In this document: piece by piece, positions 15,650-43,613 of the stretch | How positions within the stretch are numbered: the first letter of the stretch is position 1 | Layout: every line of letters begins with the position of its first letter | NCBI GenBank assembly: GCA_016934295.1 | Contig: JAFGTD010000101.1 | Location: 12,334-76,333, forward strand | Length of the DNA: 64,000 bases | Direction of reading: 5' to 3' | Origin: Acidobacteriota bacterium | Lineage (GTDB): Bacteria > Acidobacteriota > UBA6911 | The notes under the pieces: generated by a model | The model's database searches: none | What the model was told of the DNA's origin: nothing | What the model saw: the letters and a program-made list of their open reading frames with translations, nothing else | Translations under genes and position numbers: made by a program

Positions 15650-15762
15650 TTATCCGTTAATTGCTATTTTCCAATGAGCTAATAATCCGGATTCCATCGC
15701 TGATTTATTCATTGGCATAACAATTGAAGATTAAAGATTGAAAATTAAAAACCGGCCCGCAT

Positions 15763-27202: not shown

Positions 27203-27300
27203 AGACGCAAGACCTCAAAGACGCAGAGAAAAATAAATTATTTGATGCAATTTATTTTGGACTCTGCGTTCTCTGCGTCTCTGCGGTGAATTTTTTTATC
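27203..27300. terminator. large imperfect hairpin between convergent hisA-like and fae genes, built from AAGACGCA / CTCTGCGT tandem octamers around an AT-rich palindromic loop, followed by T7
   Basis: GAAGACGCAAGACCTCAAAGACGCAGAG ... CTCTGCGTTCTCTGCGTCTCTGCGG then TGAATTTTTTTATC. Confidence 0.6.
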
Positions 27301-27821: not shown

Positions 27822-27974
27822 TTCAATCCTCCTGATATTTATTCCGCAACCGGGAAAAATAGGGCTGAATTAGACCAGCGAATTTTAAGACCAGCAATTT
27901 TCTATCCGACTGAGACCTCGATCTATATATCGATGCACCTGTTTTGTCAACACGAATCCGGCAAGAAATGCGGG

Positions 27975-29129: not shown

Positions 29130-29237
29130 TCAACCCAAAACTCATCTACATGCAATTTTACTTCGAAATCATACTATGGGAAAAAATAATAGCCACTCCC
29201 TGTTTCGATGCGATCCCCATGATTCTGTGATGGGTCG

Positions 29238-30131
29238 TTATTCCAGTCCGGTTTCTTCTTCAAGCAATGCGAGGAAGATTGCGGCTGCGGTCAGGTCCGC
29301 GGTCGTGCCGGGATTCAACTTGTGGGCTTCGTCGCGCAAAGCACGATCCATTTCCTGAAGTTTCGCCCGGCCTTGAGGCGTAAAAACACCCCCCTGCAGA
29401 AGAACCTCCTGTGCCGAATTTGAAACCTGGCGGGAAACCTCCACACCGTTTTTTCTGGCAACCAGAGAGTCCGGCACTCGACCCAGGATTGTAAGAAATG
29501 CCTGGACAACAGCATCGGAGCAGGTCACTCCCCTAGCGAGGGCATCTTTCAGGGCCGGCAGCGCGGTACCAAAAGTGATCTCAAAGCCTGTAATATATTC
29601 CGATGCAATGGAATCCCGATCTTTCGCCAGATCCATTGCTTCCAGCAAAGTCATTGACGGCTCTTCGGAAACATCCTGCGCAGCGGCTCGGCCCAGGCCT
29701 CCGGGATTTGCCGCCCGGATAGCCTCATAAGCCAGCCTGGCGTCCTCAACCGTAAGCGCACCCAACACGTCGCCCAGGTCTTTTCGTATTTTCCCAATAT
29801 CCTCCATCGGTTTCCCGATATCGACCAGGCAGGCTTTTGCAAGCGGGGCCAGAAGCAGGATAATTCCGAGGTTGGTATTGTTCCCTACCAGCTTCCGACT
29901 GTCATTTACTGCATGCAGAATAGTCCGGCCTACACTTGAATGCCCGGATTTCTCGAATGCGGGACCGATCGCAACGGCGCTGAGCAGGAAATCCTCAAAG
30001 CAGGCGTCGGTAAAATCGTGATGCCTGCTCACATTGCCCGGTTTTGGGGCGCAAACCTCCCGGATGCAGGCTTCCTGAACCATTTGTGCGATCCGCTTTC
30101 CTTTATCCTCTTTCATGATACAATCAAACAC
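29238..30131 (-). CDS. triphosphoribosyl-dephospho-CoA synthase (CitG/MdcB)-like protein of the H4MPT/MFR cofactor-biosynthesis gene set
   Basis: 297 aa with CitG-family resemblance (PKPGNVSRHHDF...NTNLGIILL). Such homologues sit among H4MPT-linked genes in methylotrophs. Confidence 0.5.
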   Translation of the reverse strand: MFDCIMKEDKGKRIAQMVQEACIREVCAPKPGNVSRHHDFTDACFEDFLLSAVAIGPAFEKSGHSSVGRTILHAVNDSRKLVGNNTNLGIILLLAPLAKACLVDIGKPMEDIGKIRKDLGDVLGALTVEDARLAYEAIRAANPGGLGRAAAQDVSEEPSMTLLEAMDLAKDRDSIASEYITGFEITFGTALPALKDALARGVTCSDAVVQAFLTILGRVPDSLVARKNGVEVSRQVSNSAQEVLLQGGVFTPQGRAKLQEMDRALRDEAHKLNPGTTADLTAAAIFLALLEEETGLE

Positions 30132-30268
30132 TGTATTTTGATTCGCCGATTGATATCGGAAAGACCTGAAATTTGTACGGCCCTGTTCGATTCATTGGCT
30201 TAAATACAAACCGTTTATAAGTTTTTTTCATAATATCCCAATCCGAATCCGAATCAACAGGGGGAATC

Positions 30269-30796
30269 ATGAATGATTTACGCTATCCCATCGGTACTTT
30301 ACAAAGGGAAGACAAAATCACCAGTGAGAAGCGGCATCAATATATCGATCAATTTGCAGAAACACCGTCAAAGCTCCTTGAGGCGGTAAGCGGCCTGTCC
30401 TCCTCTCAACTGGATACACCCTATCGCCCCGAAGGGTGGACGATCCGGCAGGTGGTCCATCACCTGGCAGACAGTCATCTCAATGCGTATGTCCGATTTA
30501 AACTGGCGCTTACCGAGGAAATCCCGACCGCCAAATCGTACGATCAGAAGAGCTGGTCTGAACTCGAGGATTCCCGCACTGCACCGGTCGAAGCTTCGCT
30601 TTCAGTATTTGAAGGATTGTATCAACGCTGGTCTATCCTGTTACGTTCCTTGAGCCCTGAAGGCTTCGCCAGAACATTACATCATCCGGATTGGGGCATC
30701 ATCAGTCTCGACAGTTATCTCGGTATGTGTGTGTGGCATGGGCTGCATCACATCGCCCATATCACGGAACTGCGGCAACGCATGCACTGGCAATAA
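30269..30796 (+). CDS. DinB_2 / YfiT-like metal-dependent hydrolase family protein
   Basis: Three-His motif positions (HHLADSHLNAY...WHGLHHIAHI). 175 aa. Own RBS GGGGGAA. Confidence 0.65.
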   Translation: MNDLRYPIGTLQREDKITSEKRHQYIDQFAETPSKLLEAVSGLSSSQLDTPYRPEGWTIRQVVHHLADSHLNAYVRFKLALTEEIPTAKSYDQKSWSELEDSRTAPVEASLSVFEGLYQRWSILLRSLSPEGFARTLHHPDWGIISLDSYLGMCVWHGLHHIAHITELRQRMHWQ

Positions 30797-30872
30797 AAGC
30801 TCTCGGTAATCACTTAACGGATTAATTATACTGAAGTGAAGAACGCTGAGATTCCCGAAGTAATTAAATAAT

Positions 30873-31772
30873 TCATTTATCCCGTGTTTGCGCCTTCGCG
30901 TTAGTCTTTTCAAGGACGTGATCGACAATCCTACCTGGGATGTCTACATCAGTGATCTTCTGCAGGCCTCTCCATCCGGGAATGCTGTTAATCTCTATCA
31001 CATACGTCCTGCCGTCTTCCGACTGCATCAGGTCCACGCCCGCATAATTCAATCCTATCGTTCGAACGGCCTCCAACGCCAGCTCCTCCATACGCTGACC
31101 TAATTCAACCGGTGCCAATTCAGCTCCCTTGGAGTAGTTGGTCTTCCATCCTTTTCCATTCCGCTGCATTGCGGCAACAACTTCGTTTCCTATGACAAAC
31201 GCCCGAATGTCTTTTTGAAAATGCGGCAGATATTCCTGAATGTAAAAAATATACCGGTTCAGTTCCCAGGCCCGCAGCACCCGGTAGGCAGTCTCTTCAT
31301 CCGAGGTCCGGACAATCCCCTTCCCTTCGGAGCCGAAAAGGGGCTTGATCACGACATCTCCCATATCATTGCAGGCATTCAAAGCCGTCTCGAAATCCTC
31401 GGTTACCAGGGAACGGGGAGTCGGAATACCTGCGTCCGCAAGAAGAAAAGACGTGTAGTATTTGTCCACCGTTCGCTCTATCGCCGAACCGGAATTGACA
31501 ACAGGAATCCCCAGCTTTTCCAGGCGGTGCAGAACGTCCATGCGGAAAATTATCTGTTCAAGGGATCCTGTCGGAATGGTGCGCACCAGCAGAGCCCGGC
31601 AACCATCCAGGCGCTCTCCACGCACCTCGACACCGGGACTGTCGCCGATCCGTCCCGCCAGGCGGGTAATGTTAAAAAAAACCGGTTCGCAGTCCCTGCT
31701 GCGCACGGCCTCTTCAAGAGCCAGCGCGTGATAGCCCCTTTGGGAGGACAGGATTCCTATTCTTGCGGACAT
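30873..31772 (-). CDS. RimK-family ATP-grasp alpha-L-glutamate ligase (MptN-like, tetrahydromethanopterin:glutamate ligase family)
   Basis: 299 aa. RimK-type ATP-grasp (VIKPLFGSEGKGI, YVIEINSIPGW). Directly downstream of mch in the same operon. Confidence 0.6.
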   Translation of the reverse strand: MSARIGILSSQRGYHALALEEAVRSRDCEPVFFNITRLAGRIGDSPGVEVRGERLDGCRALLVRTIPTGSLEQIIFRMDVLHRLEKLGIPVVNSGSAIERTVDKYYTSFLLADAGIPTPRSLVTEDFETALNACNDMGDVVIKPLFGSEGKGIVRTSDEETAYRVLRAWELNRYIFYIQEYLPHFQKDIRAFVIGNEVVAAMQRNGKGWKTNYSKGAELAPVELGQRMEELALEAVRTIGLNYAGVDLMQSEDGRTYVIEINSIPGWRGLQKITDVDIPGRIVDHVLEKTNAKAQTRDK

Positions 31773-31775
31773 ACC

Positions 31776-32747
31776 TCAGTCTTCCAGAAGTGAGCTTCTC
31801 AGAAGCGCGGGGTTGATACTCCCGGAGCGGAATGTGCGCCCCGAATTCATGTTACTGATTGCAACACGGGCGGGGCTGAAAAGCATGGGATCGATCTGGT
31901 AAAAGTCCCCGTTATAGCGCCGGAACAGTTCATAGAACGGCGTGCCGTAATCCCGGGATCCCGCGGAGGGAATCCTGTCGATCAGGAAAGCCAGTTCCTC
32001 ATCCTCCGCAGCAACCGCAAAGAAAGCCTGGCTTCCGTACAGGATGGCGTCGTTGGTTCTGCCGATTGCGTGCAGATCGTCCGCCGCAACAGGTGCCAGC
32101 GGGCAAACGCCGGAAGCCGCCTTAACTTTACGGACGTCAAATCCGAGCTCCGCCAGCTTGTGCATTCCGGTCTCGGCCGACCGTGCGGCGATTTGAATCG
32201 ATCCCACAAGGGATGCCGTCGGCGCAATCAGCAGACAGACATGATCCGGCTTGACCCCGCATTTTTCAGCAACAAAAGCGGCCAGGTCCTCATCCGGCAT
32301 CCGGCGCCCCTCCAGCATCAGAACAGCCGTATCGAACTGATCTTTATATTCCAGTTTCCGGAAGATTTCTTCATCCGCGAACAGCGCCCGCGCAGGGCCC
32401 GACCCCATGGCGAAAAACTGATCCTGTTTCACGGCCCAACCGGCATACTGCGAAGCCATGCAGGCGATATGGGGAGAACTGACGCTGACCTCCACCGTTG
32501 GAAGCCAGAACGAACCTCCGTCCGAATCCCGAAGGTGATAGCTTTTATCGCTGAAACCGACCTGCGCCAGCCCGCCCAGGCAGGCGCAGGAAAAGAGCCG
32601 GCCGGCCTCCAGGCTGCCGGAAACCTCAATCCCGGCATCCAAAACGTTAGCACCGTTTTTTAAACGTTTTACACTGATATCGAGCGCTTCACACTCTTGG
32701 ATCATCTGAACCACAATCGATGCAGCCCGTTGGTTAACGCTGATCAT
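31776..32747 (-). CDS. mch: methenyl-tetrahydromethanopterin cyclohydrolase
   Basis: 323 aa. N-terminus SVNQRAASIVVQMIQECEALDISVKRLKNGANVLDAGIEVSGSLEAGRLFSCACLGGLAQV matches the Mch family pattern. Confidence 0.8.
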   Translation of the reverse strand: MISVNQRAASIVVQMIQECEALDISVKRLKNGANVLDAGIEVSGSLEAGRLFSCACLGGLAQVGFSDKSYHLRDSDGGSFWLPTVEVSVSSPHIACMASQYAGWAVKQDQFFAMGSGPARALFADEEIFRKLEYKDQFDTAVLMLEGRRMPDEDLAAFVAEKCGVKPDHVCLLIAPTASLVGSIQIAARSAETGMHKLAELGFDVRKVKAASGVCPLAPVAADDLHAIGRTNDAILYGSQAFFAVAAEDEELAFLIDRIPSAGSRDYGTPFYELFRRYNGDFYQIDPMLFSPARVAISNMNSGRTFRSGSINPALLRSSLLED

Positions 32748-33543
32748 AAACCAGGATTTCTCCTTTCCCCAACCGGTTGAAATCCCCGCTGTAACGCCGG
32801 TAGCAGCCGGTTATGTATTCTTCGGAAATCGACAGACCCTGGAGGCGGAGATCCCGAAGGATGAGCTTCAGAAAACTCGGAGAATAACTGCAGTCATAGC
32901 AGAAAGTGGGCAGCAGTTCCGGTTGATTGAAAGTAACAAGGGTGCCGCGCAACAGTCCGGCACCCGCACGAATTCCCAGTTTCCCGAAAACCATAAGGGT
33001 ACCGGCTATCATAAAGGCTCCGGCGAAATCCCCCGCATTCCCTGCAACTACTATTAATCCCCGTCGCATTACGGCACCCGCTTCATTTCCGGCGTTGCCT
33101 TCGACGATAATCATACCCCGGTTCATACCCCGGCGGCTGCCCCGGTATGCGCCGCCCAGGCCGTGTCCCGCATTTCCATGTATATGGATTTTGCCGCCCT
33201 TCATTTCCGATCCGGCCCAGTCGCCGACATTGCCGTAGACATTGATTACACCCCCGCGCATTTCCGATCCAAGATGCATGCCTGCATCTCCGTGGACCGT
33301 GATCTTCCCCCGAGTCATTCCGGCGGCTATATTTTTTACGCGGCCAAGGTCGCCTTCCAGGACAATCTCCGTCGATCCGGCCCCGGCTACCTTAAAAAAA
33401 TCCCCCAGACAGGCGGCTTCATTGCCATAGGTAACCGGCATCCCGGCAACAGCCGCGACCGAATTGCCGGCAAACCGGTCCGGTACGATGACTCCCGCCT
33501 CCAGAGGTGCCTGCAGCTGCGATTTAAGCGTCAGTACGGTCAT
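32734..33543 (-). CDS. fwdC: formylmethanofuran dehydrogenase subunit C-like (FwdC/FhcC)
   Basis: Repeated Gly-rich beta-helix turns (GNAGHGLGGAYRGS, GNAGNEAGAVMRRG, GNAGDFAGAFMIAG) typical of FwdC/GltB-C-terminal-like proteins. Confidence 0.8.
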   Translation of the reverse strand: MTVLTLKSQLQAPLEAGVIVPDRFAGNSVAAVAGMPVTYGNEAACLGDFFKVAGAGSTEIVLEGDLGRVKNIAAGMTRGKITVHGDAGMHLGSEMRGGVINVYGNVGDWAGSEMKGGKIHIHGNAGHGLGGAYRGSRRGMNRGMIIVEGNAGNEAGAVMRRGLIVVAGNAGDFAGAFMIAGTLMVFGKLGIRAGAGLLRGTLVTFNQPELLPTFCYDCSYSPSFLKLILRDLRLQGLSISEEYITGCYRRYSGDFNRLGKGEILVYDQR

Positions 33544-34438
33544 TCCGCCGAGTCTCTTCCATTATTTTCTGCAGGTAAAACTTGAACTTCCCCAGGTTGC
33601 CCCCGTAGTTTCCCGCCGAGATCCGACGGATGCCCGGAATACAGGCAGCCTGTATTCCCTCACATGTTGCCTTTTCAATAGACTGCACATCCAGCCCGTT
33701 AATAACAATTTCCAATACGGAGTTGACGCCTTCCGGAAGATCCGTATCCGCAACACCGCGCAGGCTCGGACAGAATGCATCGTTTGTACTGGCCTTTAAA
33801 AATTTATACCGGGACCCGACCTTGCTGCCGCTGCGTACGATCCCGCCCGGAAAGGGCATTATAACTCCAGGAACGTGCTGCATCGCCTCCACGGCCAGTT
33901 CCGCCGCCTGCAGCGTCACCCCCGGGTCGCTTCCAAGAATCAGGAAATTCCCACCCGCCACAGCCGGCTGAACACCGAACTTGTCCTCCACCAGGAACTC
34001 GCCTTCCATGACAGGAATACGCCAGTACCGGCAACCGGCGATCACCTTGCTGCTCTGGTACCCATCTCCGAAAAACCTCAACTGTCCACCGACCGAAACC
34101 TTATCCCCTGCATCCAAACCGTTGAAGCAGGCGGTTGTCGGGCACGTCAACACACATTGCCCGATACGATCAATCAATTGCTGCGCCAGGGAATCCTTTG
34201 AAAACCCGAAGAAAAGGACGCTTACACCCGGTCTCCCATCGGGCGTCTGCTTCAGATCGAGTTCGATGGCGCCTTCACAGTGACAGCGGATAACGGAAGT
34301 GGCGAAGCCGGTCATCTTGGAAGCCGCTTCTCGCGCCCATTTTCGATTCACGGCCGTAATAATCACCCGCGAACCCCACATGCCGAAGGCTTCCGCGAAA
34401 GTGTCTTCGATTTCTACTCCATTGATGGAATGCGTCAT
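33524..34438 (-). CDS. ftr: formylmethanofuran:tetrahydromethanopterin N-formyltransferase (Ftr / FhcD)
   Basis: N-terminus INGVEIEDTFAEAFGMWGSRVIITA...KWAREAASKMTGFATSVI matches Ftr closely. 304 aa. Confidence 0.85.
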   Translation of the reverse strand: MTHSINGVEIEDTFAEAFGMWGSRVIITAVNRKWAREAASKMTGFATSVIRCHCEGAIELDLKQTPDGRPGVSVLFFGFSKDSLAQQLIDRIGQCVLTCPTTACFNGLDAGDKVSVGGQLRFFGDGYQSSKVIAGCRYWRIPVMEGEFLVEDKFGVQPAVAGGNFLILGSDPGVTLQAAELAVEAMQHVPGVIMPFPGGIVRSGSKVGSRYKFLKASTNDAFCPSLRGVADTDLPEGVNSVLEIVINGLDVQSIEKATCEGIQAACIPGIRRISAGNYGGNLGKFKFYLQKIMEETRRNDRTDA

Positions 34439-34445
34439 AGGATTA

Positions 34446-34480
34446 AAGGTTCATCGTTCAAGGTTCAGGGTTCAAGGTTA
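34446..34480. repeat. tandem heptanucleotide repeat (AAGGTTCA TCGTTCA AGGTTCA GGGTTCA AGGTTA) in the ftr-fwdA spacer
   Basis: 7-nt periodicity seen directly. Related to the repeats at 37446-37497 and 39978-40036. Confidence 0.6.
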
Positions 34481-34529
34481 AAAATCAAGCTGCAAAAGAT
34501 CGGCGAATAAAATTCAACCGAAAACATCC

Positions 34530-36161
34530 TTACGAATCACCGGTTGTTGCGACTTCCCGGGGGCGCGGCAGATAGTGCTCCAGCTGCACCGGGTAATTCT
34601 CAAATTCGATTGTGTAATATTTCCTGAAGTACTCCCGGATATCTTTTTCGACGGCCGTGTCGTACACGGGCGCGACATACAGGGTTTTCCCGAATGTTTC
34701 CCGACGGATGGATCCGTCCTCCACTAAAACCTCGCCTTCTTTAATCACATAGCGGGGGACGGAGAACATCTTTTCCGCGTCATCGCATTTATCATAGATC
34801 GTAACATCGGCATCGGCGCCGATGCCCAGATGGCCCTTATGCTTCAGTCCCAGGATTCGGGCCGGGGCGGCCCGCGTTATAATAGCGATCTCAAAAAGGG
34901 AATATTCCCTGTCCAGATCCGGCAGCGCCGTTTTGGCGACCGCCTTCGGGTTCACTTTTTTGATGGCCTCCCGCCGAAACTCGCGGTCCATCAGCAGGCG
35001 GATGACCTGCGGGTACGAGACGAACGACGCCCCATTCGGATGATCCGTCGACAATGCAATCCGCCAGGGATCGTTCACCATCAGGTACCATTCCAAACCG
35101 ACGGCCCACTGGGTCGTGTGCATGTGGCTTTTATCCTTGTATTCGATCGGGACAATCCCGCAGCCGCACTCATTTTCTACATCCACATTCACCCATTTTC
35201 GCCCCGTCACCTGATGCAGCATGTGTGCCAGGGGCCCGTCCCCGGTCATGGAGGTCGTATCCCCGAACAGTATCTGCCCGACATCCACCGTCAGGTTCGG
35301 GTGTGTATTCACATATTCCGCCAGTTCCGGAACCCTGGAAACAAACATGCCTCCCGGATCGCCGCCATAGCTGTGGAACTGAACGTGAGCCAGGTGCCCC
35401 CGCACTCCGTCCAGAGTCTTCATTGTCTCCAGGGTGGTTTCCCAGTTTCCGGCAACCCCCAATTCATTACAGTGTATATGTACCGGGTGCGGCAGGTGCA
35501 ATTCCATACCGGCTTCGGCAAGGGATCGTATGATTCCCCGCGGAGTGACCCCGAATCCGACCACTTCCTCATCAAGCGTGTGCGTATTCCCCAGGGATTT
35601 CCACATTTCGACACCTCCCGGGTTCACCATCTTTATCGCATACCCCTTCGTCGCCTGCAGCAGCCAGGCCACGTAGTCGCGCATGCGCCCGCGCTCCCCG
35701 GCGGCTATCTGCTGCATGATGTATTCGTTATTGCCCATCAGGACAAAGAAGCCCTTGTCGACTACGGGAATATCGGAAAATTCCTCATGGGCATGGCGGG
35801 CTGCAATGGGAGGAACCGCGGCATCGAAGGCAGTCGTGTACCCCATTGCCGCATAGCGATACCCCGTCGCGAAAGTTGAGGGTACCGACTTGCCGACTCC
35901 CGAACGCGTCAGGGATGTCCGGGGGACTGGATCCAGCCGGTGATCTTCCGGGCGCATTTTGCGCGCGGTATTCACCTTCGGTCCGGCGATGTGGGCATGC
36001 ATGTCCACGCCGCCCGGCATGACGATCATCCCGGACGCATCGATCGTGCGGCCGCCTTCAACCGAATCTACAACCTTCCCGTCATCGATACAGACATCGC
36101 GCACTTCCCCGTCGATATTATTGGCGGGATCGTAGACTGCCCCGTTCACGATTTTCAGCAT
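34530..36161 (-). CDS. fwdA: formylmethanofuran dehydrogenase subunit A-like amidohydrolase (FwdA/FhcA)
   Basis: 543 aa. Amidohydrolase metal-site HxH (GGVDMHAHIAGPKVN). FwdA-like length and context. Confidence 0.85.
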   Translation of the reverse strand: MLKIVNGAVYDPANNIDGEVRDVCIDDGKVVDSVEGGRTIDASGMIVMPGGVDMHAHIAGPKVNTARKMRPEDHRLDPVPRTSLTRSGVGKSVPSTFATGYRYAAMGYTTAFDAAVPPIAARHAHEEFSDIPVVDKGFFVLMGNNEYIMQQIAAGERGRMRDYVAWLLQATKGYAIKMVNPGGVEMWKSLGNTHTLDEEVVGFGVTPRGIIRSLAEAGMELHLPHPVHIHCNELGVAGNWETTLETMKTLDGVRGHLAHVQFHSYGGDPGGMFVSRVPELAEYVNTHPNLTVDVGQILFGDTTSMTGDGPLAHMLHQVTGRKWVNVDVENECGCGIVPIEYKDKSHMHTTQWAVGLEWYLMVNDPWRIALSTDHPNGASFVSYPQVIRLLMDREFRREAIKKVNPKAVAKTALPDLDREYSLFEIAIITRAAPARILGLKHKGHLGIGADADVTIYDKCDDAEKMFSVPRYVIKEGEVLVEDGSIRRETFGKTLYVAPVYDTAVEKDIREYFRKYYTIEFENYPVQLEHYLPRPREVATTGDS

Positions 36162-37444
36162 GCCTTCAGCTCCTTCACCCCGGCCAGCAGACGGTCGAGC
36201 ACTTCTTCATCCGACGGATAGGACGAGTCCATCACCTTGCGCAAATGAATGGGGATGTTGTCCATGCGATATACCGTTCCTTCAGCGTGAATCCCCGCAG
36301 TAGAGGTCGTAAACGCGATCCGGGCGCTGCGCGTCGTTTCGCTGTCGTGCGTATCCAGGGAGACAAGAGGGATTTCCGCCAGCCGTCGAGCAGCTTTCCC
36401 CGGAAGGCTTGAAATCGGGTCCGCGGCAACGACCAGAGCCGCGTCTGCCTCCCCCCGGCTGAGCAGATCGACAACGGTGTATTCGCCCGGATTGAACCGC
36501 GGATATCCCAGGCTGAAATTAACCCCGAAAGGGTATCCGGTCTGCCAGGCAAGTACGTTGTCGATACCGGTGACGTTCCCGTGCCCGCGCATGGGAATCA
36601 GGGCAAATTTGACATGCCGATTGAGAGCGCGCACCAGCAGAAATACGGCCGAAGTATTGAAATGTTTGCCCCGTGTCTGTGTCAGCCCCTGCCCGACAAA
36701 TATAACGCCGAATTTACAGTGCATCATCCGGTCGGCCAATCCGGTCAATTGTTCATAGGTCAGGCCGGTATTCTCAATGGATATTTCATCCGGTTTTTGA
36801 CCGTTCGCCAGTGCCTGAAGAGCCCAAAGAACCTCAAAATCCTTGCCCGGCTTGATCTGCAGGAAGATGTCCGCGGCGCGCGCACTGGGCGTGCGTCTCA
36901 CGTCGATCAAAACAACCGTTCTTCCTTTTCGTCCGTCAGGTACAAACATGCCTTTAGGGGTCACGGCATAGCGCGCCATATGGCGTGGATGGGATTCTGC
37001 GGGATTGGATCCCCAATAGATAATAAGGTCGGCGCGGTTTTTCACCTCGCCCAGGGTGCAGGTCGGCTCCCCGACGCCCTGCAGCGCCATCCCGGAGGGA
37101 CCGTGACAGACCGACGTGCAGCAGTCGATACATCCCCCGAGAACTTCCGCCAGGGCGACCGCCTTCCGTTGCGCTTCACAGGAGGTGCTGCTTAATCCGT
37201 AGATAAGAGGGTACCGGGCATTCGCTAGACAACGGGCGGCCTCTTCAATCCCTCGATCCAGGCTGACCGGCTTCCCTTCGATCCTCGCAACCGGAAGATC
37301 CGAAGGGGTGCCATGACTTAAAAACCAGGACTTGCCCAGGACACATGCATTTTTTGCCTTTGTGATACGGTCGCCTTCTACAGTGACGCTGATGTCGTCG
37401 CAAACACAGCCGCAGAATGCACAAACCACATGATCGACTTGCAT
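36155..37444 (-). CDS. fwdB: formylmethanofuran dehydrogenase subunit B (molybdopterin-binding), retaining the active-site Cys
   Basis: N-terminal 4Fe-4S motif CAFCGCVC. TSVCHGPSG segment equivalent to the (Se)Cys-HGPS metal-ligand motif of formate-dehydrogenase-type enzymes. 429 aa. Confidence 0.8.
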   Translation of the reverse strand: MQVDHVVCAFCGCVCDDISVTVEGDRITKAKNACVLGKSWFLSHGTPSDLPVARIEGKPVSLDRGIEEAARCLANARYPLIYGLSSTSCEAQRKAVALAEVLGGCIDCCTSVCHGPSGMALQGVGEPTCTLGEVKNRADLIIYWGSNPAESHPRHMARYAVTPKGMFVPDGRKGRTVVLIDVRRTPSARAADIFLQIKPGKDFEVLWALQALANGQKPDEISIENTGLTYEQLTGLADRMMHCKFGVIFVGQGLTQTRGKHFNTSAVFLLVRALNRHVKFALIPMRGHGNVTGIDNVLAWQTGYPFGVNFSLGYPRFNPGEYTVVDLLSRGEADAALVVAADPISSLPGKAARRLAEIPLVSLDTHDSETTRSARIAFTTSTAGIHAEGTVYRMDNIPIHLRKVMDSSYPSDEEVLDRLLAGVKELKAC

Positions 37445-37445
37445 A

Positions 37446-37497
37446 AAAAACCGTTTCCCGTTTCCCGTTCCCCGTTTCCCGTTGAATACAACGGGAA
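37446..37497. repeat. tandem heptamers (CCGTTTC x4.5) followed by hairpin CCCGTT-gaatac-AACGGG in the fwdD-fwdB spacer
   Basis: AAAAAACCGTTTCCCGTTTCCCGTTCCCCGTTTCCCGTTGAATACAACGGGAACC seen directly. Confidence 0.6.
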
Positions 37498-37498
37498 C

Positions 37499-37840
37499 CT
37501 AAAAGAGCAACGGTTTTATTTCGACCTCAAGGTGTTTGGAGTCCGGCATGCCGGACGCGTAGGTTTCGTCTCCAACCAGGCGGTTGCAGGCCGGTCCGAA
37601 GGGAATAAAAGCCAATCCTTCCGGCATATCGCCTTTAAAACATTTGACGGATGCTTCCCCGAATTCAGACTTCAAAACTACAGAATCCCCGTCGTGCAAT
37701 CCAAAATGCAGCATATCCGAAAGATTCATCTCAACCGCGTTCGTAGCCTCCTGATACTCCGGGCCTTCCTTGCCGGTGGATATTCCGGTTCCCTGCTTCG
37801 TGGATCGCCCTGAAATCAAAATTAGCCGAGTTTTATCCAT
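37499..37840 (-). CDS. fwdD: formylmethanofuran dehydrogenase subunit D-like (molybdopterin-dinucleotide-binding beta-barrel domain)
   Basis: 113 aa. Resembles the small MopB C-terminal-domain-type subunit (ISTGKEGPEY...EASVKCFKGDMPEGLAFIPFGPACN). Confidence 0.6.
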   Translation of the reverse strand: MDKTRLILISGRSTKQGTGISTGKEGPEYQEATNAVEMNLSDMLHFGLHDGDSVVLKSEFGEASVKCFKGDMPEGLAFIPFGPACNRLVGDETYASGMPDSKHLEVEIKPLLF

Positions 37841-38993
37841 AAATCTCTTCTTTGAGCTCTTCCGCGAAACGAATCAATTCCGCAAGGGTTTCCTCCCTGT
37901 CCGGCCGGTCTCGCAGAATCGTACATATCGGACCACCCCTGGGGATCGTTTCTCCGGATGCGGGAATATCCCGGATGCCCCTGCCCTTCCAGTTCCGGGT
38001 GTCCGGCACCGTCGCATCCTTCCCGGCAAAAAGGATGCTCTTCCCGAAACACTTCCCGGTATTTAATGCGCTTTCCAGCCTGAAATCCGGAAGTTCCCCA
38101 TGAAGCGCTGCTCTTACATGCAGATGGAAAATTGGAAGCCCGTAAGACTGTTCTATCAACTCCATGGAAGCCGAATAACGGGGATTCACCTCAAGCAGGT
38201 ATATTCGATCACCAGAGAGTATGAAGTCAATTCCATTCACACCCATTAATCCATATTCAGATGTCAGGAATGCGGCCAATCTCTTCAGCTGGTCCAGAAT
38301 TGCCTTTCCGGTATCAGGATCCATGACTTCCGGTAAAGGCAGAAGGTTACCGCAATAACGGAACCCTTGAGAGCCAAATTCCTTTATGCCGATCAACTGC
38401 TCGGTGATTCCGAGAACGACAGCTTCCTTGCCATTCGCTACAAAGGAGACGGAACACGGTCTGCCGGAAATATATTCCTGGAGCATTGAATCCGGAACGC
38501 CATGCATCCTCTCTCTTCCAGGCAATGATTCTGTCCAAAAAGAAATCCCATGTCCTCCCCCGCTCAGCAGCGGTTTCAGCAGCCAGCGGCATTGGGAATC
38601 AACCGGCCGTGTTTCATTGTTAAAGACCATTTTCGGCACGGGAAAACCCGCGCGTCCGAGCCTGTCGAACAGGTCGGACCAGCTGCGCACGGCAGCGACA
38701 ACCCGGGATGAATTTCCGATAATCCTGTGTCCTTCGCCGAATCGGGCAAGTATCCCGGGATAGTTTTCAATGTTGGATGTATAGGCAACGGCGTCAAAAT
38801 TCATCTTCCGGCTGGCTTTAAAGAGTGCCCCGGGGCTGTATCCGGTATGGAAATCGCGACGCAGGGAGTAGGATTCCGTTAATTCCTTCAGATCCCGGTC
38901 GCCGAAGGCATCCAGGGCAATCACGGCATATCCGCTGCGTACAGCGGATTCGGCCATTGCCCGCACGCTTATTCCTATGACAAGAACCTTCAT
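37833..38993 (-). CDS. ATP-grasp domain protein of the H4MPT-linked C1-transfer gene set
   Basis: 386 aa. ATP-grasp signature (IYLLEVNPRYSASMELIE). Overlaps fwdD by 8 nt, suggesting translational coupling. Confidence 0.55.
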   Translation of the reverse strand: MKVLVIGISVRAMAESAVRSGYAVIALDAFGDRDLKELTESYSLRRDFHTGYSPGALFKASRKMNFDAVAYTSNIENYPGILARFGEGHRIIGNSSRVVAAVRSWSDLFDRLGRAGFPVPKMVFNNETRPVDSQCRWLLKPLLSGGGHGISFWTESLPGRERMHGVPDSMLQEYISGRPCSVSFVANGKEAVVLGITEQLIGIKEFGSQGFRYCGNLLPLPEVMDPDTGKAILDQLKRLAAFLTSEYGLMGVNGIDFILSGDRIYLLEVNPRYSASMELIEQSYGLPIFHLHVRAALHGELPDFRLESALNTGKCFGKSILFAGKDATVPDTRNWKGRGIRDIPASGETIPRGGPICTILRDRPDREETLAELIRFAEELKEEIYG

Positions 38994-39030
38994 CCTTTAT
39001 CCGTGGAAAGGAAGCAAATCCAGGTTGACT

Positions 39031-39945
39031 TTATATAATCTCTTTGGCGATGGCGTAGACGCTTTCGGTGTCCAGCACAAGATCGTTGTATTCAAACAAT
39101 TTGGCGATGCAGGCTTTATGCACTTTCATTTTGGGATTCCCGACGGCCAGCGCTCCCAATGCAAATTTGCCGTCATACCCGGCAAAATCATCCCCCGGCT
39201 TGACGCCCTCAATACCCAACGGCTCCACGAGATTAAAATCGATCAGCCATTTCAAACCGGGTCTGGCCGACCAGGAGGCCGACGGCAGCAGGCGCAATCC
39301 CGCAGGTCCGGCCGAAACCAGAATTTCGGTCTCATCCAGTAAATTTTCAAGCTCCGCGTCATCGGCGGGATCGCTCACCTGAATTGTTCCGCCGGAAGCG
39401 GCAGAGGGATTATGAGAGAATGTTTCCGCCGTCGCTCTTCCGCTTTTAAGCGTTTGTTGCGCCAGGTCTTTATTAAAACGGTCCCCCAGCAATCCGGGAA
39501 GAATGGACACAACCCGCACCCGGCATCCCTCTGCAGCCATTAAAACAGCGGCGCGCAAGCCTACAGGGCCCGGTCCCATCACCAGCGCACTCTTCCCTTG
39601 AAGATCCGTCTGCCGGGCCAGCTTGGCAATTGCCGTGGAGGCGGTGGTATTGCAGCCGTTGGAATCGAGCATGAGGGATATTTGAAACGGTCCGAAAAAT
39701 ACCCGGCGGGCTTCAGCCAGCATTTGTTCCCCCCTATCCACATCGGAACCGCCTATCCATACCGCAATGCTTTTCAGATCCGGTATGCCGCGGGTAAAGA
39801 TGGCTCCCTGGACCAAACCGCGTATGTCCGACGGCTTCACTCCTCCGTAACTCAGCACAACATCCGCGCCTGAATCCTGTGCAACAATACTATCGAAGGT
39901 ACTGGCGAATTTATCGCTGTCCAATTGAATAAGAATCTTTTTCAT
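39031..39945 (-). CDS. NAD(P)-dependent methylene-tetrahydromethanopterin dehydrogenase (MtdA/MtdB family)
   Basis: 304 aa. Strong family motifs RVFFGPFQISLMLDSNGCNTTA and HKACIAKLFEYNDLVLDTESVYAIAKE. Confidence 0.85.
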   Translation of the reverse strand: MKKILIQLDSDKFASTFDSIVAQDSGADVVLSYGGVKPSDIRGLVQGAIFTRGIPDLKSIAVWIGGSDVDRGEQMLAEARRVFFGPFQISLMLDSNGCNTTASTAIAKLARQTDLQGKSALVMGPGPVGLRAAVLMAAEGCRVRVVSILPGLLGDRFNKDLAQQTLKSGRATAETFSHNPSAASGGTIQVSDPADDAELENLLDETEILVSAGPAGLRLLPSASWSARPGLKWLIDFNLVEPLGIEGVKPGDDFAGYDGKFALGALAVGNPKMKVHKACIAKLFEYNDLVLDTESVYAIAKEII

Positions 39946-39977
39946 ACTGTGTCCTTTCGAAAAAACCAGGGGGACCT

Positions 39978-40036
39978 AAGGTTAATTCCGTTCAGCGTTT
40001 CCCGTTTCCCGTTTCCCGTTCAGGGTTCAGGGTTAT
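39978..40036. repeat. tandem heptamers (CGTTTCC x3 then CGTTCAGG GTTCAGG) in the mptG-like / mtd spacer
   Basis: AAGGTTAATTCCGTTCAGCGTTTCCCGTTTCCCGTTTCCCGTTCAGGGTTCAGGGTT seen directly. Confidence 0.6.
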
Positions 40037-40103
40037 AAAAACCCACACGACCTGAACTAGCCCGCAATAATCTCAATGAATTAAAATTTTGGAAATAAGT
40101 CTA

Positions 40104-41141
40104 TTACCGGAATTCGATTATTCGGGCGCCGCGGTTCTGGGGCCGGACCAGGAATGATTCGCCTCCACCGAGGCTGTCGAGATAAGCCTGCGTTTGATCG
40201 AGTAGCTTTTGCGCTTCAGCCTTTCCCTGGATCAGGCCATAGACGGTCGGCCCCCAGGAGCTCTGCCCGATGCCGGCGGCTCCGCGACCCATCATAAATT
40301 CCACAATCTTTTCCGAAACGGGATTGGCGAAACGACCTCCCTGGACGGAGGCAAAACAGTCCCCGACCATGCACTGGATACCGGTCAAGGCACAACCGAA
40401 ATTTTCTATATCCTTTTCCACCAGGGCCGGCAGCATCCGGATCAACAGCTCCCGGCTTATTTTCTCCACCAGGCCGGACGGCGCCCGGGGCAGTTTTATG
40501 AAGGCATTGTCCTCCTTCTTACCGTTCAATCCCTTTTGGGTTTTAGGAATAACTGTTACAAAGATCCAGTCCCTGGGCACTGCATGGTGAAACAGAACAG
40601 GGGGAACATGGTTTTTCTCCACCGCCCGGGCCGAACCATTCTTAAATCCGGCTTCGCTCGAGCCGAATCTTCGATTCGGCCGGGCTGCGCCGGAAAGATC
40701 CGTGAGAACACGATGACCGCCATCCAGGACAAATCCGCCATGTTGGAAAGTGGAAATGCCGATCCCGGAATGCACGCCCCTTCCCACCGCCAATGCAATT
40801 TCCTGAATACTGAGTCTGCGACCGGACAGCCGCGCCAGCGCCGCGCCGACGGCCAGAGCCAGCTGGGTTCCGGAACCCAATCCGACATGCGCCTGGATAT
40901 GGCTTATCAGATTCAGATGCGCCCCTGAGGGGAAGCCGTAACGCCGCATGAACCGCCGTGCATAGGTTGCAACCCGCCGTCGCTCCAGTCCCTCAACCTG
41001 CAGTGTCTTCGCCGTCCGCGCCCGCAGAACGAGTTTCGGCCGATCCACCGCCAATCCCACACTTCCGTACAAGCGTCCCAGTCCGCCGTTATTGTCCAGC
41101 AAACCCAGATGCAAACGCGCACAGGTTCGTACTTCAATCAT
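40104..41141 (-). CDS. GHMP-kinase-fold protein resembling beta-ribofuranosylaminobenzene 5'-phosphate synthase (MptG-like, methanopterin biosynthesis)
   Basis: 345 aa. N-terminus CARLHLGLLDNNGGLGRLYGSVGLAV like beta-RFAP synthases. GHMP motif region. Confidence 0.55.
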   Translation of the reverse strand: MIEVRTCARLHLGLLDNNGGLGRLYGSVGLAVDRPKLVLRARTAKTLQVEGLERRRVATYARRFMRRYGFPSGAHLNLISHIQAHVGLGSGTQLALAVGAALARLSGRRLSIQEIALAVGRGVHSGIGISTFQHGGFVLDGGHRVLTDLSGAARPNRRFGSSEAGFKNGSARAVEKNHVPPVLFHHAVPRDWIFVTVIPKTQKGLNGKKEDNAFIKLPRAPSGLVEKISRELLIRMLPALVEKDIENFGCALTGIQCMVGDCFASVQGGRFANPVSEKIVEFMMGRGAAGIGQSSWGPTVYGLIQGKAEAQKLLDQTQAYLDSLGGGESFLVRPQNRGARIIEFR

Positions 41142-41695
41142 TCCTTCCCCGCTTTCCGGATATAATCCCGAACCACTTGCAGCGCCTGTTTTTCCGTTGC
41201 CCCGCCTGTCTTCTCCACGATCTCCGCGAAACCAAATATCTTCTCATCTACGATTTTTCGATCGTAGAAAGCCAGCCGGGTCGCCAGGATAATCGCTTCA
41301 ATCACGGCACCTGCAGCCCGGCAGAAACCAGGAAAATCCTTCCGCTCTTCCGTGTGCACGACCCGGCACTTCACTTCCGCCCGGGCTTCGGAACCTTCAC
41401 TGAAAATCACCTCCAGTTCCCGCCACGCACATGTCCCTTCAAAAACAATCCCCGGAATCTTCCTTGCCGGGAAATTCGGCAGAATATCACCGTTCAAGGC
41501 ACATCGTGCATACGCCAGCACATCGTCGGCAATATTCGCCACACCATATCCGGTGGAAAGAAGATTTCGACACGTGTCGGTATTCCGAAACGGTCGCACG
41601 GTAACAATATCATCCGCCCACAAGACGCCCATCGGGGCGAAATTCGGCTTGCCACCTTCATCAATAGTTGAAAAGATCGTCTCAACAATCATCAA
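41138..41695 (-). CDS. DUF447-family protein (H4MPT-biosynthesis-associated)
   Basis: 185 aa. Family membership inferred from general resemblance and context only. Confidence 0.45.
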   Translation of the reverse strand: MMIVETIFSTIDEGGKPNFAPMGVLWADDIVTVRPFRNTDTCRNLLSTGYGVANIADDVLAYARCALNGDILPNFPARKIPGIVFEGTCAWRELEVIFSEGSEARAEVKCRVVHTEERKDFPGFCRAAGAVIEAIILATRLAFYDRKIVDEKIFGFAEIVEKTGGATEKQALQVVRDYIRKAGKE

Positions 41696-41716
41696 AGTAG
41701 TTAATATGCAAACAGA

Positions 41717-41790
41717 AAAAAACTCACCGCCGAGGCGCAGAGAACGCAGAGGATTTTAAAATAACTCTGTGTCTCTGAAGTGAGTTTTTA
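41717..41790 (-). terminator. long imperfect hairpin (AAAAAACTCAC...GTGAGTTTTT with inner CAGAG/CTCTG) between the DHPS-like and DUF447 genes
   Basis: Inverted repeat seen directly. On the minus strand the stem is followed by an A/T-rich tract. Confidence 0.35.
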
Positions 41791-43107
41791 TTCAGATAAA
41801 TACCCCCAACGCAAGTCCTCTTCCTGTTCATATTTTTTTCCGAGTTTCAGAGCCAGAGACGCTTTCTGCAGCTCCCGCCCCAGGTAAAAGGCCTCTGCGG
41901 CATTCCTGATATTCAAGTGATTGAATATCGACTGAACATCGTTGTCTCTAATGAAAATCTTATTATTAAACACATAAACGGAATCACGGTCTATAAAGAT
42001 GCGATAGTTACGATCCCGCACTTTTTCCTGCATCCCGCGCAGCTCTTCTTCAGAGAATGCTTCAAAAGGAGGATCCTTGATTGTGATCAAGCCGTCATCG
42101 AGATGCTTGGGCAGTATCCTGTGATGACAGGCATAATGCATCAGCCGCCGGGCAACATCGAACTCCCGGACTGCGCCTCGGGCCCAGCTGATCACCTCGG
42201 TAGTCAACACATAATCTATTTCCAGTTCGGTTACAACTCCCGCCATCACCGCACTCATCCCCGTCGTATCCGCGTCCGTCAGTTCGGTGAGATTTCCCGA
42301 TCCCAGGAGCATTTCGGCCTTCGGATGATTCCTTCGGGTTGTAATAAATTCGCCGATCGATTCGGTAAAACCGAATCCGATCGGCCTTAAAACCGGGTCG
42401 ATGATATAGGGAACGCCCCAGGCTTCCAGTTGAGAGATATTGCGCTCCAGCGATTCCAGCCCCTGTTCGAAATCCGGGACAACCACGACCTTGCAGTGCA
42501 GACGCGGCACTACTTCCATATTCCTGGAATTGACACTGAGAAGGAAATCGACATGGGCTTCATCCGCCTTCAGGATATCTTCCTTGCTGAACGAATCCAC
42601 ACTGACCAGGTATCCATCGGATTTCAGAGCTTTCACCACCCTGTCGATGTTCGGGAATCCCCCTTCAACCGGGCAGCCCAGATCTATGACATCGGCGCCG
42701 TTGGCTCTGTAATAGGAAGCCCGCTCCATTATCGCCTCCATACCAAGCCGGTAGGCGTCGACGATCTCGGCGAAAATTCTAACTTTGTGGGCGCCGTATC
42801 CTTCCAGTGCACGGGCTTTCCCGAAGTAGCCGGGAATATCCTTCAGGCACCTGGGGCCGCAAATAACTTCAACTCCCAGTTTGTCCTCTATTATTCCGGG
42901 ATCCGCTGAACACAAACCCGGAATCATGACCTTATCGCAACCCATGGCGCTGGTCAGGTGCTTCGCGACAAACCGTGCATCCATTAATGCCGCGACCGAA
43001 ATGGGAAGAACGGCACACTCATATTTCAGGCCTCTACCCATCCCTTCCAGTGTCTTCTGGAGGAACGGACCGGCCAGTTTGCCGGTTACAAATAGGTAGC
43101 GAGACAT
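41788..43107 (-). CDS. dihydropteroate-synthase-like (pterin-binding) protein of the methanopterin biosynthesis type
   Basis: 439 aa. Pterin-binding TIM-barrel resemblance (GADVIDLGC ... ADEAHVDFLLSVNS). Overlaps the downstream flavoprotein gene. Confidence 0.55.
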   Translation of the reverse strand: MSRYLFVTGKLAGPFLQKTLEGMGRGLKYECAVLPISVAALMDARFVAKHLTSAMGCDKVMIPGLCSADPGIIEDKLGVEVICGPRCLKDIPGYFGKARALEGYGAHKVRIFAEIVDAYRLGMEAIMERASYYRANGADVIDLGCPVEGGFPNIDRVVKALKSDGYLVSVDSFSKEDILKADEAHVDFLLSVNSRNMEVVPRLHCKVVVVPDFEQGLESLERNISQLEAWGVPYIIDPVLRPIGFGFTESIGEFITTRRNHPKAEMLLGSGNLTELTDADTTGMSAVMAGVVTELEIDYVLTTEVISWARGAVREFDVARRLMHYACHHRILPKHLDDGLITIKDPPFEAFSEEELRGMQEKVRDRNYRIFIDRDSVYVFNNKIFIRDNDVQSIFNHLNIRNAAEAFYLGRELQKASLALKLGKKYEQEEDLRWGYLSE

Positions 43108-43613
43108 TTTGTCAATTCCTCCCGGCTCCCGACAACGTTCGTTCCCGCCAGCCTTCTGAGTTTTCCGGTATTCTCAAGATCAATCGGTCTCGGATACACT
43201 TTTAACGGTTCCCGGTGAGGTCCGAAGGACAACGTCTCGGGAGCCAGGTCGGTCGGGTACACAATGATCGGCACCCTGGATTTGCCGGCCTGAGCAAACA
43301 GGTTGGTCACAAGGGTGTCCGAGATGCCGTGCACGAATTTAGCGACTGAATTGGAGGTGGCGGGTGCTATTATTAATAGTTTGTACCTGCCGCCGTAAAA
43401 CCGCGCCGCCACCGGGGCGCTCTTCCCTTCATCCCGGCAAATCGACATGCCGGATGCCTGAAGGCGGGAGTATAAACCGTACATCTTCAGAACCTCTTCT
43501 GCCGCCCGGGACAGGAATAGATCGATCTTTTTCCGTTCCATAATCATGCCTATACATTCTTCCAAAGCATGCCCCGCGCCGGTAATCGCCCATGCGATTC
43601 TTTTTTTATCCAT
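43086..43613 (-). CDS. archaeal-flavoprotein-like FMN protein (DmrA/AfpA family, dihydromethanopterin reductase-like)
   Basis: 175 aa flavoprotein fold (WAITGAGHALEECIGMI ... LLIIAPATSNSVAKF). Confidence 0.55.
   Translation of the reverse strand: MDKKRIAWAITGAGHALEECIGMIMERKKIDLFLSRAAEEVLKMYGLYSRLQASGMSICRDEGKSAPVAARFYGGRYKLLIIAPATSNSVAKFVHGISDTLVTNLFAQAGKSRVPIIVYPTDLAPETLSFGPHREPLKVYPRPIDLENTGKLRRLAGTNVVGSREELTKCLATYL

Follow-up and report, generated by a model that had tools for sequence, protein, structure and literature searches.

Three intercistronic spacers of a one-carbon (C1) gene cluster in an Acidobacteriota bacterium each carry a tandem array of heptanucleotides, in which the triplet AAC recurs every 7 nucleotides (nt) and which precedes the start codon of the next gene. 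The stretch analysed, referred to here as the window, is 64,000 nt long (GenBank assembly GCA_016934295.1, contig JAFGTD010000101.1, positions 12,334 to 76,333). The three arrays are confirmed as real and as far from chance; they have a fixed anatomy and polarity, they are conserved at orthologous junctions, and two of the three downstream genes lack a canonical Shine-Dalgarno (SD) sequence. Our preferred explanation, which we hold tentatively and at somewhat less than even confidence, is that the arrays are transcribed heptanucleotide repeats that have their function, or their constraint, at the RNA level, where they would contribute to an SD-poor region for initiating translation of the downstream cistron or for coupling it. 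From the features described below we infer that the arrays are present in mRNA, that they may be used by ribosomes, by ribosomal protein S1 or by another protein, and that they may serve to couple adjacent cistrons.

Sequence and position of the arrays

All genes of the C1 region lie on the minus strand, which is the sense strand of the cluster and on which the array units are phased on AAC. The arrays, numbered 1 to 3 together with the spacers that hold them, and the segments that join them to the next start codon are as follows:

34449-34483, minus strand: array 1, five heptamers (TTTTAAC, CTTGAAC, CCTGAAC, CTTGAAC, GATGAAC), before ftr/fhcD
34439-34448, minus strand: degenerate sixth unit of array 1 and tail, CTTTAATCCT, with the ATG of ftr/fhcD next at 34438
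37453-37487, minus strand: array 2, five heptamers (ATTCAAC, GGGAAAC, GGGGAAC, GGGAAAC, GGGAAAC), before fwdB
37445-37452, minus strand: tail of array 2, GGTTTTTT, with the ATG of fwdB next at 37444
39990-40038, minus strand: array 3, seven heptamers (TTATAAC, CCTGAAC, CCTGAAC, GGGAAAC, GGGAAAC, GGGAAAC, GCTGAAC), before mtd
39946-39989, minus strand: mtd leader of 44 nt, with a U6 run and a weak SD sequence, AGGA (39952-39955), from array 3 to the ATG at 39945; conserved with the related locus L205

A first-pass annotation, made from the letters alone, had described tandem heptamers in these three spacers, and both the sequence and Tandem Repeats Finder bear out the arrays and their minus-strand units. 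In the output of that program the ftr spacer has a period-7 array at 34446-34479 (4.9 copies), the fwdB spacer one at 37451-37483 (4.7 copies) and the mtd spacer two, at 39996-40020 (3.6 copies, 100% match) and 40018-40034 (2.4 copies), with scores of 47-59 for the arrays of 3.6-4.9 copies. The units share the consensus SNKRAAC (CCTGAAC, CTTGAAC and GGGAAAC; also GATGAAC and GGGRAAC), and array 3 combines the unit types of arrays 1 and 2. All three arrays are sense-oriented and sit at the 3′ end of their spacers, with array-to-ATG tails of 10 nt for ftr and 8 nt for fwdB, both U-rich, and 44 nt for mtd. The AAAACCG and CGGTTTT elements that had been taken to flank array 2 are both present (37447-37453 and 37511-37517), but the second lies inside fwdD.

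When both strands of the whole window were searched for at least three RAAC motifs at 7-nt spacing, only these three sites were returned, all on the minus strand and all in the C1 cluster; order-1 Markov simulations of the window give a chance expectation of 0.055 sites with at least three units and 0.0 with at least four. Every array lies in a spacer between called genes, and the sole open reading frame (ORF) that crosses one (37430-37813, plus strand) is antisense to fwdD. Three arrays among the 17 ORFs of the cluster, versus none among the 35 ORFs called elsewhere in the window, corresponds to a hypergeometric estimate of p ~0.03. The last full unit of array 1, GATGAAC (34449-34455, minus strand), also opens a mini-ORF, AUG AAC CUU UAA, which stops 4 nt before the ftr AUG and is probably incidental.

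Inverted units and start regions

Each spacer contains one inverted unit near the upstream stop codon:

34513-34519, minus strand: degenerate inverted unit GGTTGAA, a short way past the stop codon of fwdA; pairs with the first unit of array 1 in the predicted minimum free energy (MFE) fold
37478-37495, minus strand: hairpin CCCGUU-GUAUUC-AACGGG, 3 nt past the UAG (37499-37501) that ends fwdD; units 1 and 2 of array 2 overlap its 3′ arm
40051-40057, minus strand: inverted unit GTTCAGG, predicted to pair with the second CCUGAAC of array 3 (40018-40024) with a probability of ~1

The second of these is the hairpin that the first-pass annotation had given as CCCGTT-N6-AACGGG, and its 5′ arm, CCCGTT, is the inverted unit of spacer 2. 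The arrays themselves are mostly unpaired in the predicted folds, and the stems in the window are only 6-7 bp. Spacer 2 does not have the layout of an intrinsic terminator, its U run lying 25 nt past the hairpin, and a consensus scan for sigma-70-like promoters and for terminators gave no site in any of the three spacers.

GGAG, GAGG and AGGA are absent upstream of ftr and fwdB (for fwdB, in the 30 nt before the ATG), while about half of the ORFs of the window have one of them, many of them strong. A canonical SD sequence was thus not found for two of the three downstream genes, and mtd has the weak AGGA. The U6 run of the mtd leader (39946-39975, minus strand) can pair with the AAAGGA SD region in the manner of a fourU thermometer, in a weak predicted fold (-5.1 kcal/mol, z = +1.1); the predicted structure of the L205 mtd leader differs from this pairing.

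Conservation at orthologous junctions

FwdB matches a protein from an Acidobacteria metagenome-assembled genome at 100% identity; its relatives number in the hundreds and come from soil, wetland and sediment metagenomes; 88 orthologous loci were collected, with identifiers such as L001. The first-pass annotation had pointed to orthologous loci as one place where its reading would stand or fall, and the arrays are kept there. In relatives whose FwdB is 80-90% identical, the corresponding junctions carry arrays of this type: before fwdB in L005, L008, L042, L046, L047, L028, L205 and the more distant L033, and before ftr in L001, L008, L203/L204 and L205. The L205 locus has arrays at four cluster junctions, including that between the DUF6513 and DUF447 genes and that before mtd. 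The units vary among relatives (GACCTGG, CTGCAAC, GGGAAAC, CTTGAAC and others), as does their number, from 3 to 10. The arrays are lineage-specific in where they occur, and their copy number is dynamic.

The AAC core, by contrast, is kept in phase. In an alignment of five ftr spacers (the window, L001, L008, L203 and L205, with arrays in register), the columns without any change are those of the AAC triplets, in 7-nt phase, and those of the final bases ahead of the ATG. The pattern search had picked neither L203 (at any junction) nor L205 (at the ftr junction), so the conservation of AAC in this alignment is not circular. The information content of the units, which is partly circular through pattern selection, is 0.9-1.3 bits at the AAC positions versus 0.1-0.4 at positions 1-4. 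Those four positions are nevertheless non-random and fall into two classes, xxTG and GGGR. The tails to the ATG measure 4-17 nt and are U-rich in 15 of 18 arrays. At four-fold degenerate sites the window and its relatives are 0.31-0.61 identical, where unrelated sequence would give 0.27-0.31; synonymous sites are thus partly to nearly saturated, and any spacer free of constraint should have drifted to largely random sequence among the more distant of them.

Inverted units are also more developed in some relatives. The fwdD-fwdB spacers of L008 (-45.2 kcal/mol, z = -5.0), L005 (-40.8 kcal/mol, z = -4.6, a near-perfect stem of ~24 bp) and L046 (-28.9 kcal/mol, z = -3.3) are predicted to form hairpins of inverted arrays, the base of which brackets the stop codon and the start codon. 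The three window spacers look like this inverted-array design with the 5′ arm cut to one unit. The L205 mtd leader is clearly homologous to that of the window and has ~2 units against 7, and array 3 is expanded relative to it. Spacer 3 was also considered as a remnant of a 150-aa ORF that L205 has at that place, and this was rejected since tblastn finds no similarity. The spacers of L203 and L204, which come from two samples and are 99.96% identical over 5 kb, are identical, the degenerate ftr array included, and so give no sign of hypermutability. Orthologues below ~78% identity have short spacers and AAGGAG-type SD sites. In L206, a 90% identical relative, the contig begins 2 nt before the fwdB ATG and the spacer is lost.

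Arrays in other genomes

A scan of species-representative genomes for five RAAC motifs at 7-nt spacing gave at least 120 loci. Among the matches listed, to which all counts in this section refer, record titles assign ~48 to Bacteroidota and 20 to Acidobacteriota, the rest including cyanobacteria, Verrucomicrobiota and Planctomycetota. The recurrent layout in Acidobacteriota opens with a stop codon and (GTTYNNN)n; a short loop leads on to (NNNRAAC)m, and an interval of 2-13 nt then to an ATG. Every RAAC array with an inverted partner has the GTTY arm on the 5′ side and the RAAC arm on the 3′ side (21 to 0, binomial p ~1e-6). Fifteen of the 18 distinct hairpins have a start codon (of an ORF of at least 100 codons) within 60 nt, and ~11 bridge a stop codon to a start codon. 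The overall orientation, 20 to 7, is inflated by this hairpin class, and greedy ORF calls across all phyla (35 downstream genes on the same strand, 39 on the opposite strand) are uninformative.

The genes downstream of arrays in other Acidobacteriota include prephenate dehydratase, recR, purB, mnmA, ligT and a CoxB-like protein, among others. These are mutually unrelated, hence the arrays are not a C1-specific regulon. Of 133 arrays, 27 are no more than 300 nt from the end of their locus; contig ends are often in or near arrays, which appear to break short-read assemblies, and these contig breaks suggest that the array units are multi-copy in those genomes. One contig of a Rhodothermales metagenome-assembled genome (L107) ends in (AAACCCT)12 at 1-82, with a second, internal run of 6 units at 2994-3033. 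AAACCCT is the reverse complement of the plant-type telomere repeat TTTAGGG, and its presence in L107 could reflect contamination, the end of a linear replicon or another heptamer array.

A possible role in initiation and coupling

On the preferred explanation, the arrays would have arisen by slippage in the intercistronic spacers of the H4MPT C1 cluster and would still be expanding and contracting in that way. Each spacer runs from the stop codon through one inverted GUUY-type unit and a loop to (NNNRAAC)4-7, and from there over a U-rich tail of 8-10 nt, or 44 nt in the case of mtd, to the AUG. The A-rich, weakly structured array and the U-rich tail would together form an SD-poor landing region for the 30S subunit. 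The A-rich arm is on the side of the start codon on either strand, which fits the A-rich, unstructured leaders of SD-independent initiation, and the phased AAC suggests a reader with repeated modules. Candidate readers would be S1 or another single-strand binder with the oligonucleotide-binding (OB) fold, such as Csp, at about one heptamer per domain; the OB-fold domains of S1 and Csp each bind ~6-7 nt. The inverted unit, or the whole inverted array in relatives, would pair with the array and bring the stop codon beside the downstream start, such that translation of fwdB, ftr and mtd could stay coupled to the preceding cistron despite a spacer of 54-158 nt.

A broader form of this proposal, which is speculative and which we consider improbable as it stands, is that phased AAC-N4 arrays with strict arm polarity are the recognition code of a widespread system of SD-independent initiation or coupling, read by a periodic single-strand RNA binder (an S1 OB-fold array, Csp or an oligomer of another kind) at one heptamer per module. 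Such a code might extend over Acidobacteriota, Bacteroidota and other SD-poor contexts, with the TAACTGA repeats discussed below as one dialect. Two observations may be new, namely the conservation of AAC-N4 through heavy synonymous turnover and the 21-to-0 arm polarity among the matches listed.

Several results weigh against a role of the arrays in initiation and coupling. Spacer 2 folds better than shuffled controls (-27.8 kcal/mol, z = -2.57), but spacer 1 (z = -0.45) and spacer 3 (z = +0.99) show no such advantage, which makes the coupling hairpin weak in two of the three window spacers. The mtd array is 44 nt from its ATG, and mtd has its own AGGA. Among the matches listed, arrays without a partner show no significant orientation bias towards start codons (13 vs 7, p = 0.26). 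The SD sequence at the fwdD-fwdB junction is weak clade-wide, whether arrays are present or not. Finally, in relatives that are equally close, this junction holds unrelated elements or almost nothing: a CGCAGAG-type hairpin in L001 and L203/L204, a GACCCC hexamer array of ~5 units in L040 (about 5900-6000), an octamer-like CCCCTTTG repeat in L006 (about 170-257), other hairpins in L003, L004 and L009, and only 9 nt in L002. The heptamers are therefore not required for the operon. Since the DUF6513-DUF447 junction likewise has a CGCAGAG hairpin in the window and a RAAC array in L205, these junctions accept interchangeable repeat or hairpin elements.

Alternative explanations

The main rival of initiation and coupling at the RNA level is that the arrays are neutral or selfish slippage repeats tolerated in spacers, with the polarity and hairpins reflecting insertions that are harmless to start regions. 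We regard this as unlikely, though it deserves to be taken seriously. The variation in copy number and units and the expansion of array 3 from a two-unit seed both favour it, as do the filling of the same junction by unrelated repeats or by nothing in other relatives, the occurrence of arrays before functionally unrelated genes in other Acidobacteriota, and the many arrays at contig ends (27 of 133 among the matches listed, with the L206 contig breaking 2 nt before the fwdB ATG). Heptanucleotides are also the commonest simple repeats of 5-11 nt and have been attributed to polymerase slippage, in so far as that survey is relayed in a later paper (Mrazek 2007, via PMC4679880). Slippage alone would homogenise all seven positions, however. 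Between lineages, and inside arrays of mixed units, AAC stays in phase and the variation is at positions 1-4. The persistence of arrays at the same junctions where synonymous sites are partly to nearly saturated, the strict arrangement of the arms (21 to 0 among the matches listed) and the concentration of three arrays in 17 cluster ORFs (none in 35 others, p ~0.03) also argue against it.

A dedicated periodic RNA-binding protein, in the form of a ring or helical oligomer whose subunits would each contact an AAC or GRAAC at 7-nt intervals to repress or activate translation of the adjacent cistron, is a more remote proposal. It is in keeping with a conserved triplet separated by four variable bases, with 4-7 units beside a start codon and three sites in one cluster, and the geometry matches that of HutP and TRAP sites. 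No HutP, TRAP, CsrA, Hfq or Csp gene was found among the 50 window ORFs scanned with Pfam, though, and the arrays are dispensable in close relatives and have equivalents before unrelated housekeeping genes elsewhere; the xxTG and GGGR classes at positions 1-4 fit slippage families as well as they fit spacers. The first-pass annotation had offered binding sites for a repeat-recognising regulator or RNA-binding protein as one reading, and of this the phased AAC with four varying bases between survives, while the lack of a candidate gene among those 50 ORFs, the arrays before unrelated genes and the unrelated repeats at the same junctions in relatives all count against it.

RNA processing or stability has about the same low standing. 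Here the hairpins of inverted heptamers would be RNase III or RNase E sites, or barriers to 3′ exonucleases, and would set the levels of operon segments, for which the repetitive extragenic palindromic (REP) hairpins of E. coli operons are an analogue. The long, near-perfect hairpins in the fwdD-fwdB spacer of relatives (~24 bp in L005) and the z of -2.57 for spacer 2 of the window are in its favour. The stems in the window are only 6-7 bp, however, spacers 1 and 3 are not significantly structured, and the single-stranded 3′ arrays and their conserved AAC would be left unexplained. The suggestion of the first-pass annotation that such elements separate cofactor-biosynthesis genes from enzyme genes is weakened further, as this is true of one junction of three (mptG-like/mtd) and two of the three spacers fold like shuffles.

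An RNA or DNA G-quadruplex (G4) built from GGGAAAC units and modulating fwdB expression is very improbable. The sense strand of spacer 2 does have four tracts of at least three G, 3-4 nt apart, and GGGNATC repeats provide a precedent (PMC4692102), but there are no G tracts in array 1 and no more than three contiguous ones in array 3. When ViennaRNA was run with G4 energies, structure and energy were the same with or without G4 for every spacer and the MFE structures contained none; the orthologous arrays have 1-4 G tracts with irregular loops, and G4 potential is thus not the conserved feature.

Just as little credence is given to a function at the DNA level, whether as operators at internal promoters or as phase-variable contingency repeats. 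Tandem heptamers serve as operator or phase-variation elements in other bacteria, analogues being the 7-bp repeats in the hmw promoters of H. influenzae and the TTTTGAT repeats of V. cholerae ctx. The consensus scan gave no sigma-70-like promoter in the spacers, however, and the arrays have heterogeneous units and low copy numbers, the L203 and L204 spacers (99.96% identical loci over 5 kb) are identical, and the strand polarity relative to the genes points to RNA. GGGAAAC is also a classical slippery heptamer; frameshifting was rejected because the arrays lie beyond the stop codon, outside every ORF. The units also resemble 16S helix 45 and the tRNA T-arm, but these likenesses made no testable prediction and were dropped.

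Gene cluster context and other repeats

The gene names of the first-pass annotation are right (beta-ribofuranosylaminobenzene 5′-phosphate (beta-RFAP) synthase family, or mptG-like, Mtd, FwdD, FwdB, FwdA, Ftr/FhcD and FwdC). In order of transcription the cluster runs from a DUF6513/dihydropteroate-synthase-like gene through DUF447, the mptG-like gene, spacer 3 (158 nt), mtd, an ATP-grasp gene, fwdD, spacer 2 (54 nt), fwdB, fwdA, spacer 1 (91 nt), ftr/fhcD, fwdC and mch to further tetrahydromethanopterin (H4MPT) genes, down to fae. The cistrons downstream of the arrays are:

33524-34438, minus strand: ftr/fhcD, formylmethanofuran–H4MPT formyltransferase, downstream of array 1
36155-37444, minus strand: fwdB/fhcB-like gene, downstream of array 2
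39031-39945, minus strand: mtd, methylene-H4MPT dehydrogenase, with an Mpt_N domain, downstream of array 3

At its other junctions the cluster has genes that overlap or almost touch, in line with the tightly coupled operon that had been described, but a strong terminator-like hairpin stands between the DUF6513 and DUF447 genes (stretch folded, 41700-41795) and departs from that picture. An Rfam E-value search of 33000-42000 returned three chance-level matches, none of them in the spacers. The H4MPT-linked C1 module looks complete (fae, mch, mtd, fhc/fwd ABCD, ftr and cofactor-biosynthesis genes, 27309-43613) and is flanked by two aldehyde:ferredoxin oxidoreductase genes (22704-24413 and 49007-51055) together with LarA-type and Ldh_2-type dehydrogenase genes.

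A second repeat family in the window consists of CGCAGAG/CTCTGCG hairpins at 11681-11774, 27222-27300 and 41713-41803. Two copies are closed by CTCAC...GTGAG, and there are A and U runs on the flanks. The predicted folds are strong and terminator-like (11676-11770, -43.6 kcal/mol, z = -7.7; 41700-41795, -28.6 kcal/mol, z = -4.5), and the copy at 41713-41803 may split the C1 cluster transcriptionally. REP-like palindromes (GGGGACATAATACTTAAT...) are found in close relatives: in L001 at 1163-2100, in L203 at 7448-8290, in L008 upstream of the ATP-grasp gene and in L205 at 5820-5906. In L001 and L203 they occur with a gene for a Y1 transposase, resembling REP-associated tyrosine transposases (RAYT), between mtd and the ATP-grasp gene, where the window has a 37-nt spacer. 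Lastly, an AT-rich period-7 array of another type lies at 15718-15751 on the minus strand (TTTTCAA, TCTTTAA, TCTTCAA in the sense direction), shortly past a stop codon, in the spacer after a LarA-like gene (15763-17049). This array falls outside the RAAC type; its T-rich sense strand and its place after a stop codon are consistent with the polarity in which T-rich sequence follows the stop.

Comparison with known systems

The arrays belong to a known class, the prokaryotic heptanucleotide simple-sequence repeats, and match none of the sequence-defined families within it. Long simple repeats of 5-11 nt are described as mainly non-coding, with heptamers the commonest and a sporadic distribution by lineage (Mrazek et al., 2007, via PMC4679880). 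As far as that survey is summarised there, its class is defined by tandem short units longer than chance and by non-coding position, and the window arrays have both; the class is statistical and comes with no rule of position or polarity, whereas the window arrays have a fixed place between stop and start and an AAC core.

The cyanobacterial short tandemly repeated repetitive (STRR) sequences reportedly comprise three heptamers, STRR1 (CCCCAGT), STRR2 (TTGGTCA) and STRR3 (CAACAGT), which are said to have been described by Mazel and colleagues in 1990. They are transcribed and non-coding, including in spacers of co-transcribed genes, and are highly repetitive genome-wide in heterocystous cyanobacteria. 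The window arrays are alike in being tandem, non-coding heptanucleotides and differ in phylum and in unit sequence, none of the three STRR heptamers being present in them; against the genome-wide repetitiveness of STRR, the window has no arrays beyond the three in 64 kb. An STRR-like family, as the first-pass annotation had put it, comes nearest among its three readings and is apt as to the simple-sequence class, with arrays built alike in many Acidobacteriota, Bacteroidota and cyanobacteria, and not as to the units, and within the 64-kb window the arrays are confined to the C1 cluster.

In Xanthomonas and Nostoc, GGGNATC repeats are transcribed, occur preferentially in fours, fold into G4 in vitro and are located between ORFs of the same orientation (Rehm 2015, PMC4692102). 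GGGAAAC is one base from GGGAATC, and the window arrays share the position between co-oriented ORFs and the number of about four units; two of the three are wholly or partly of the CCTGAAC type, though, and G4 is neither predicted in them nor conserved in orthologues. HutP sites are UAG-N4 repeats and TRAP sites are (G/U)AG repeats overlapping start regions, both read by oligomeric RNA-binding proteins. The AAC-N4 of the window likewise combines a conserved triplet with variable spacers, in several units by a start region, but the triplet is another one, there is no terminator-antiterminator context, the arrays are dispensable in relatives, and no such gene is among the 50 window ORFs scanned. 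In Geobacter metallireducens, heptanucleotide elements include a fourfold GGGACCG type in 49 copies and a fivefold MTYCTGA (PMC2700814). These too are 4-5 tandem heptamers at many loci, proposed as regulatory RNAs or regulator sites, and they differ in their units, in also lying inside genes and in having no start-codon rule described (PMC2700814). Heptamer repeats near the start codons of recF and recO in Nostoc altered reporter activity when deleted (preprint), and A-rich, unstructured leaders tune SD-independent initiation in Bacteroidetes (PMC6847099).

Heptanucleotide repeats at start codons have thus been reported in sulfur bacteria, cyanobacteria, Bacteroidetes and Geobacter, and we know of no case in which a function was demonstrated. 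To these the present locus adds an Acidobacterial case, in an enzyme operon that is well defined and presumably sensitive to stoichiometry. It also adds evidence that the AAC core persists in phase through heavy synonymous turnover, and a simple rule of polarity in which a T-rich arm follows the stop codon and an A-rich arm precedes the start codon. Should the arrays indeed tune SD-independent initiation or coupling, they would offer a compact and evolvable means to set subunit ratios and would matter for the annotation of gene starts and the prediction of expression in SD-poor lineages; if they are neutral, they would be a practical nuisance at which assemblies break.

Of the systems described so far, the nearest are the TAACTGA repeats known from marine Beggiatoaceae and from some cyanobacteria and Bacteroidetes, of which the BOGUAY genome has ~170 sets, 147 of these 170 in forward orientation just upstream of start codons that mostly have no ribosome-binding site (RBS), and for which S1, Csp or CsrA has been proposed as a partner (MacGregor 2015, PMC4679880). 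The differences are several. The window units are CCTGAAC, CTTGAAC and GGGAAAC, with no TAACTGA unit, in more heterogeneous arrays and in the phylum Acidobacteriota; a U-rich tail of 6-11 nt stands between array and ATG, versus most often 1 nt for BOGUAY TAACTGA; the window has 3 sets in 64 kb, all in one cluster, against ~170 per genome; and an inverted upstream unit or arm that can form a hairpin accompanies the window arrays and not the TAACTGA repeats. The two are otherwise alike in being tandem intergenic heptamers (2-6 or more), in forward orientation and directly upstream of mostly RBS-less starts of functionally unrelated genes, with arrays sometimes split by related heptamers, and variants one base from TAACTGA (GAACTGA, AAACTGA) occur in other Acidobacteriota among the matches listed.

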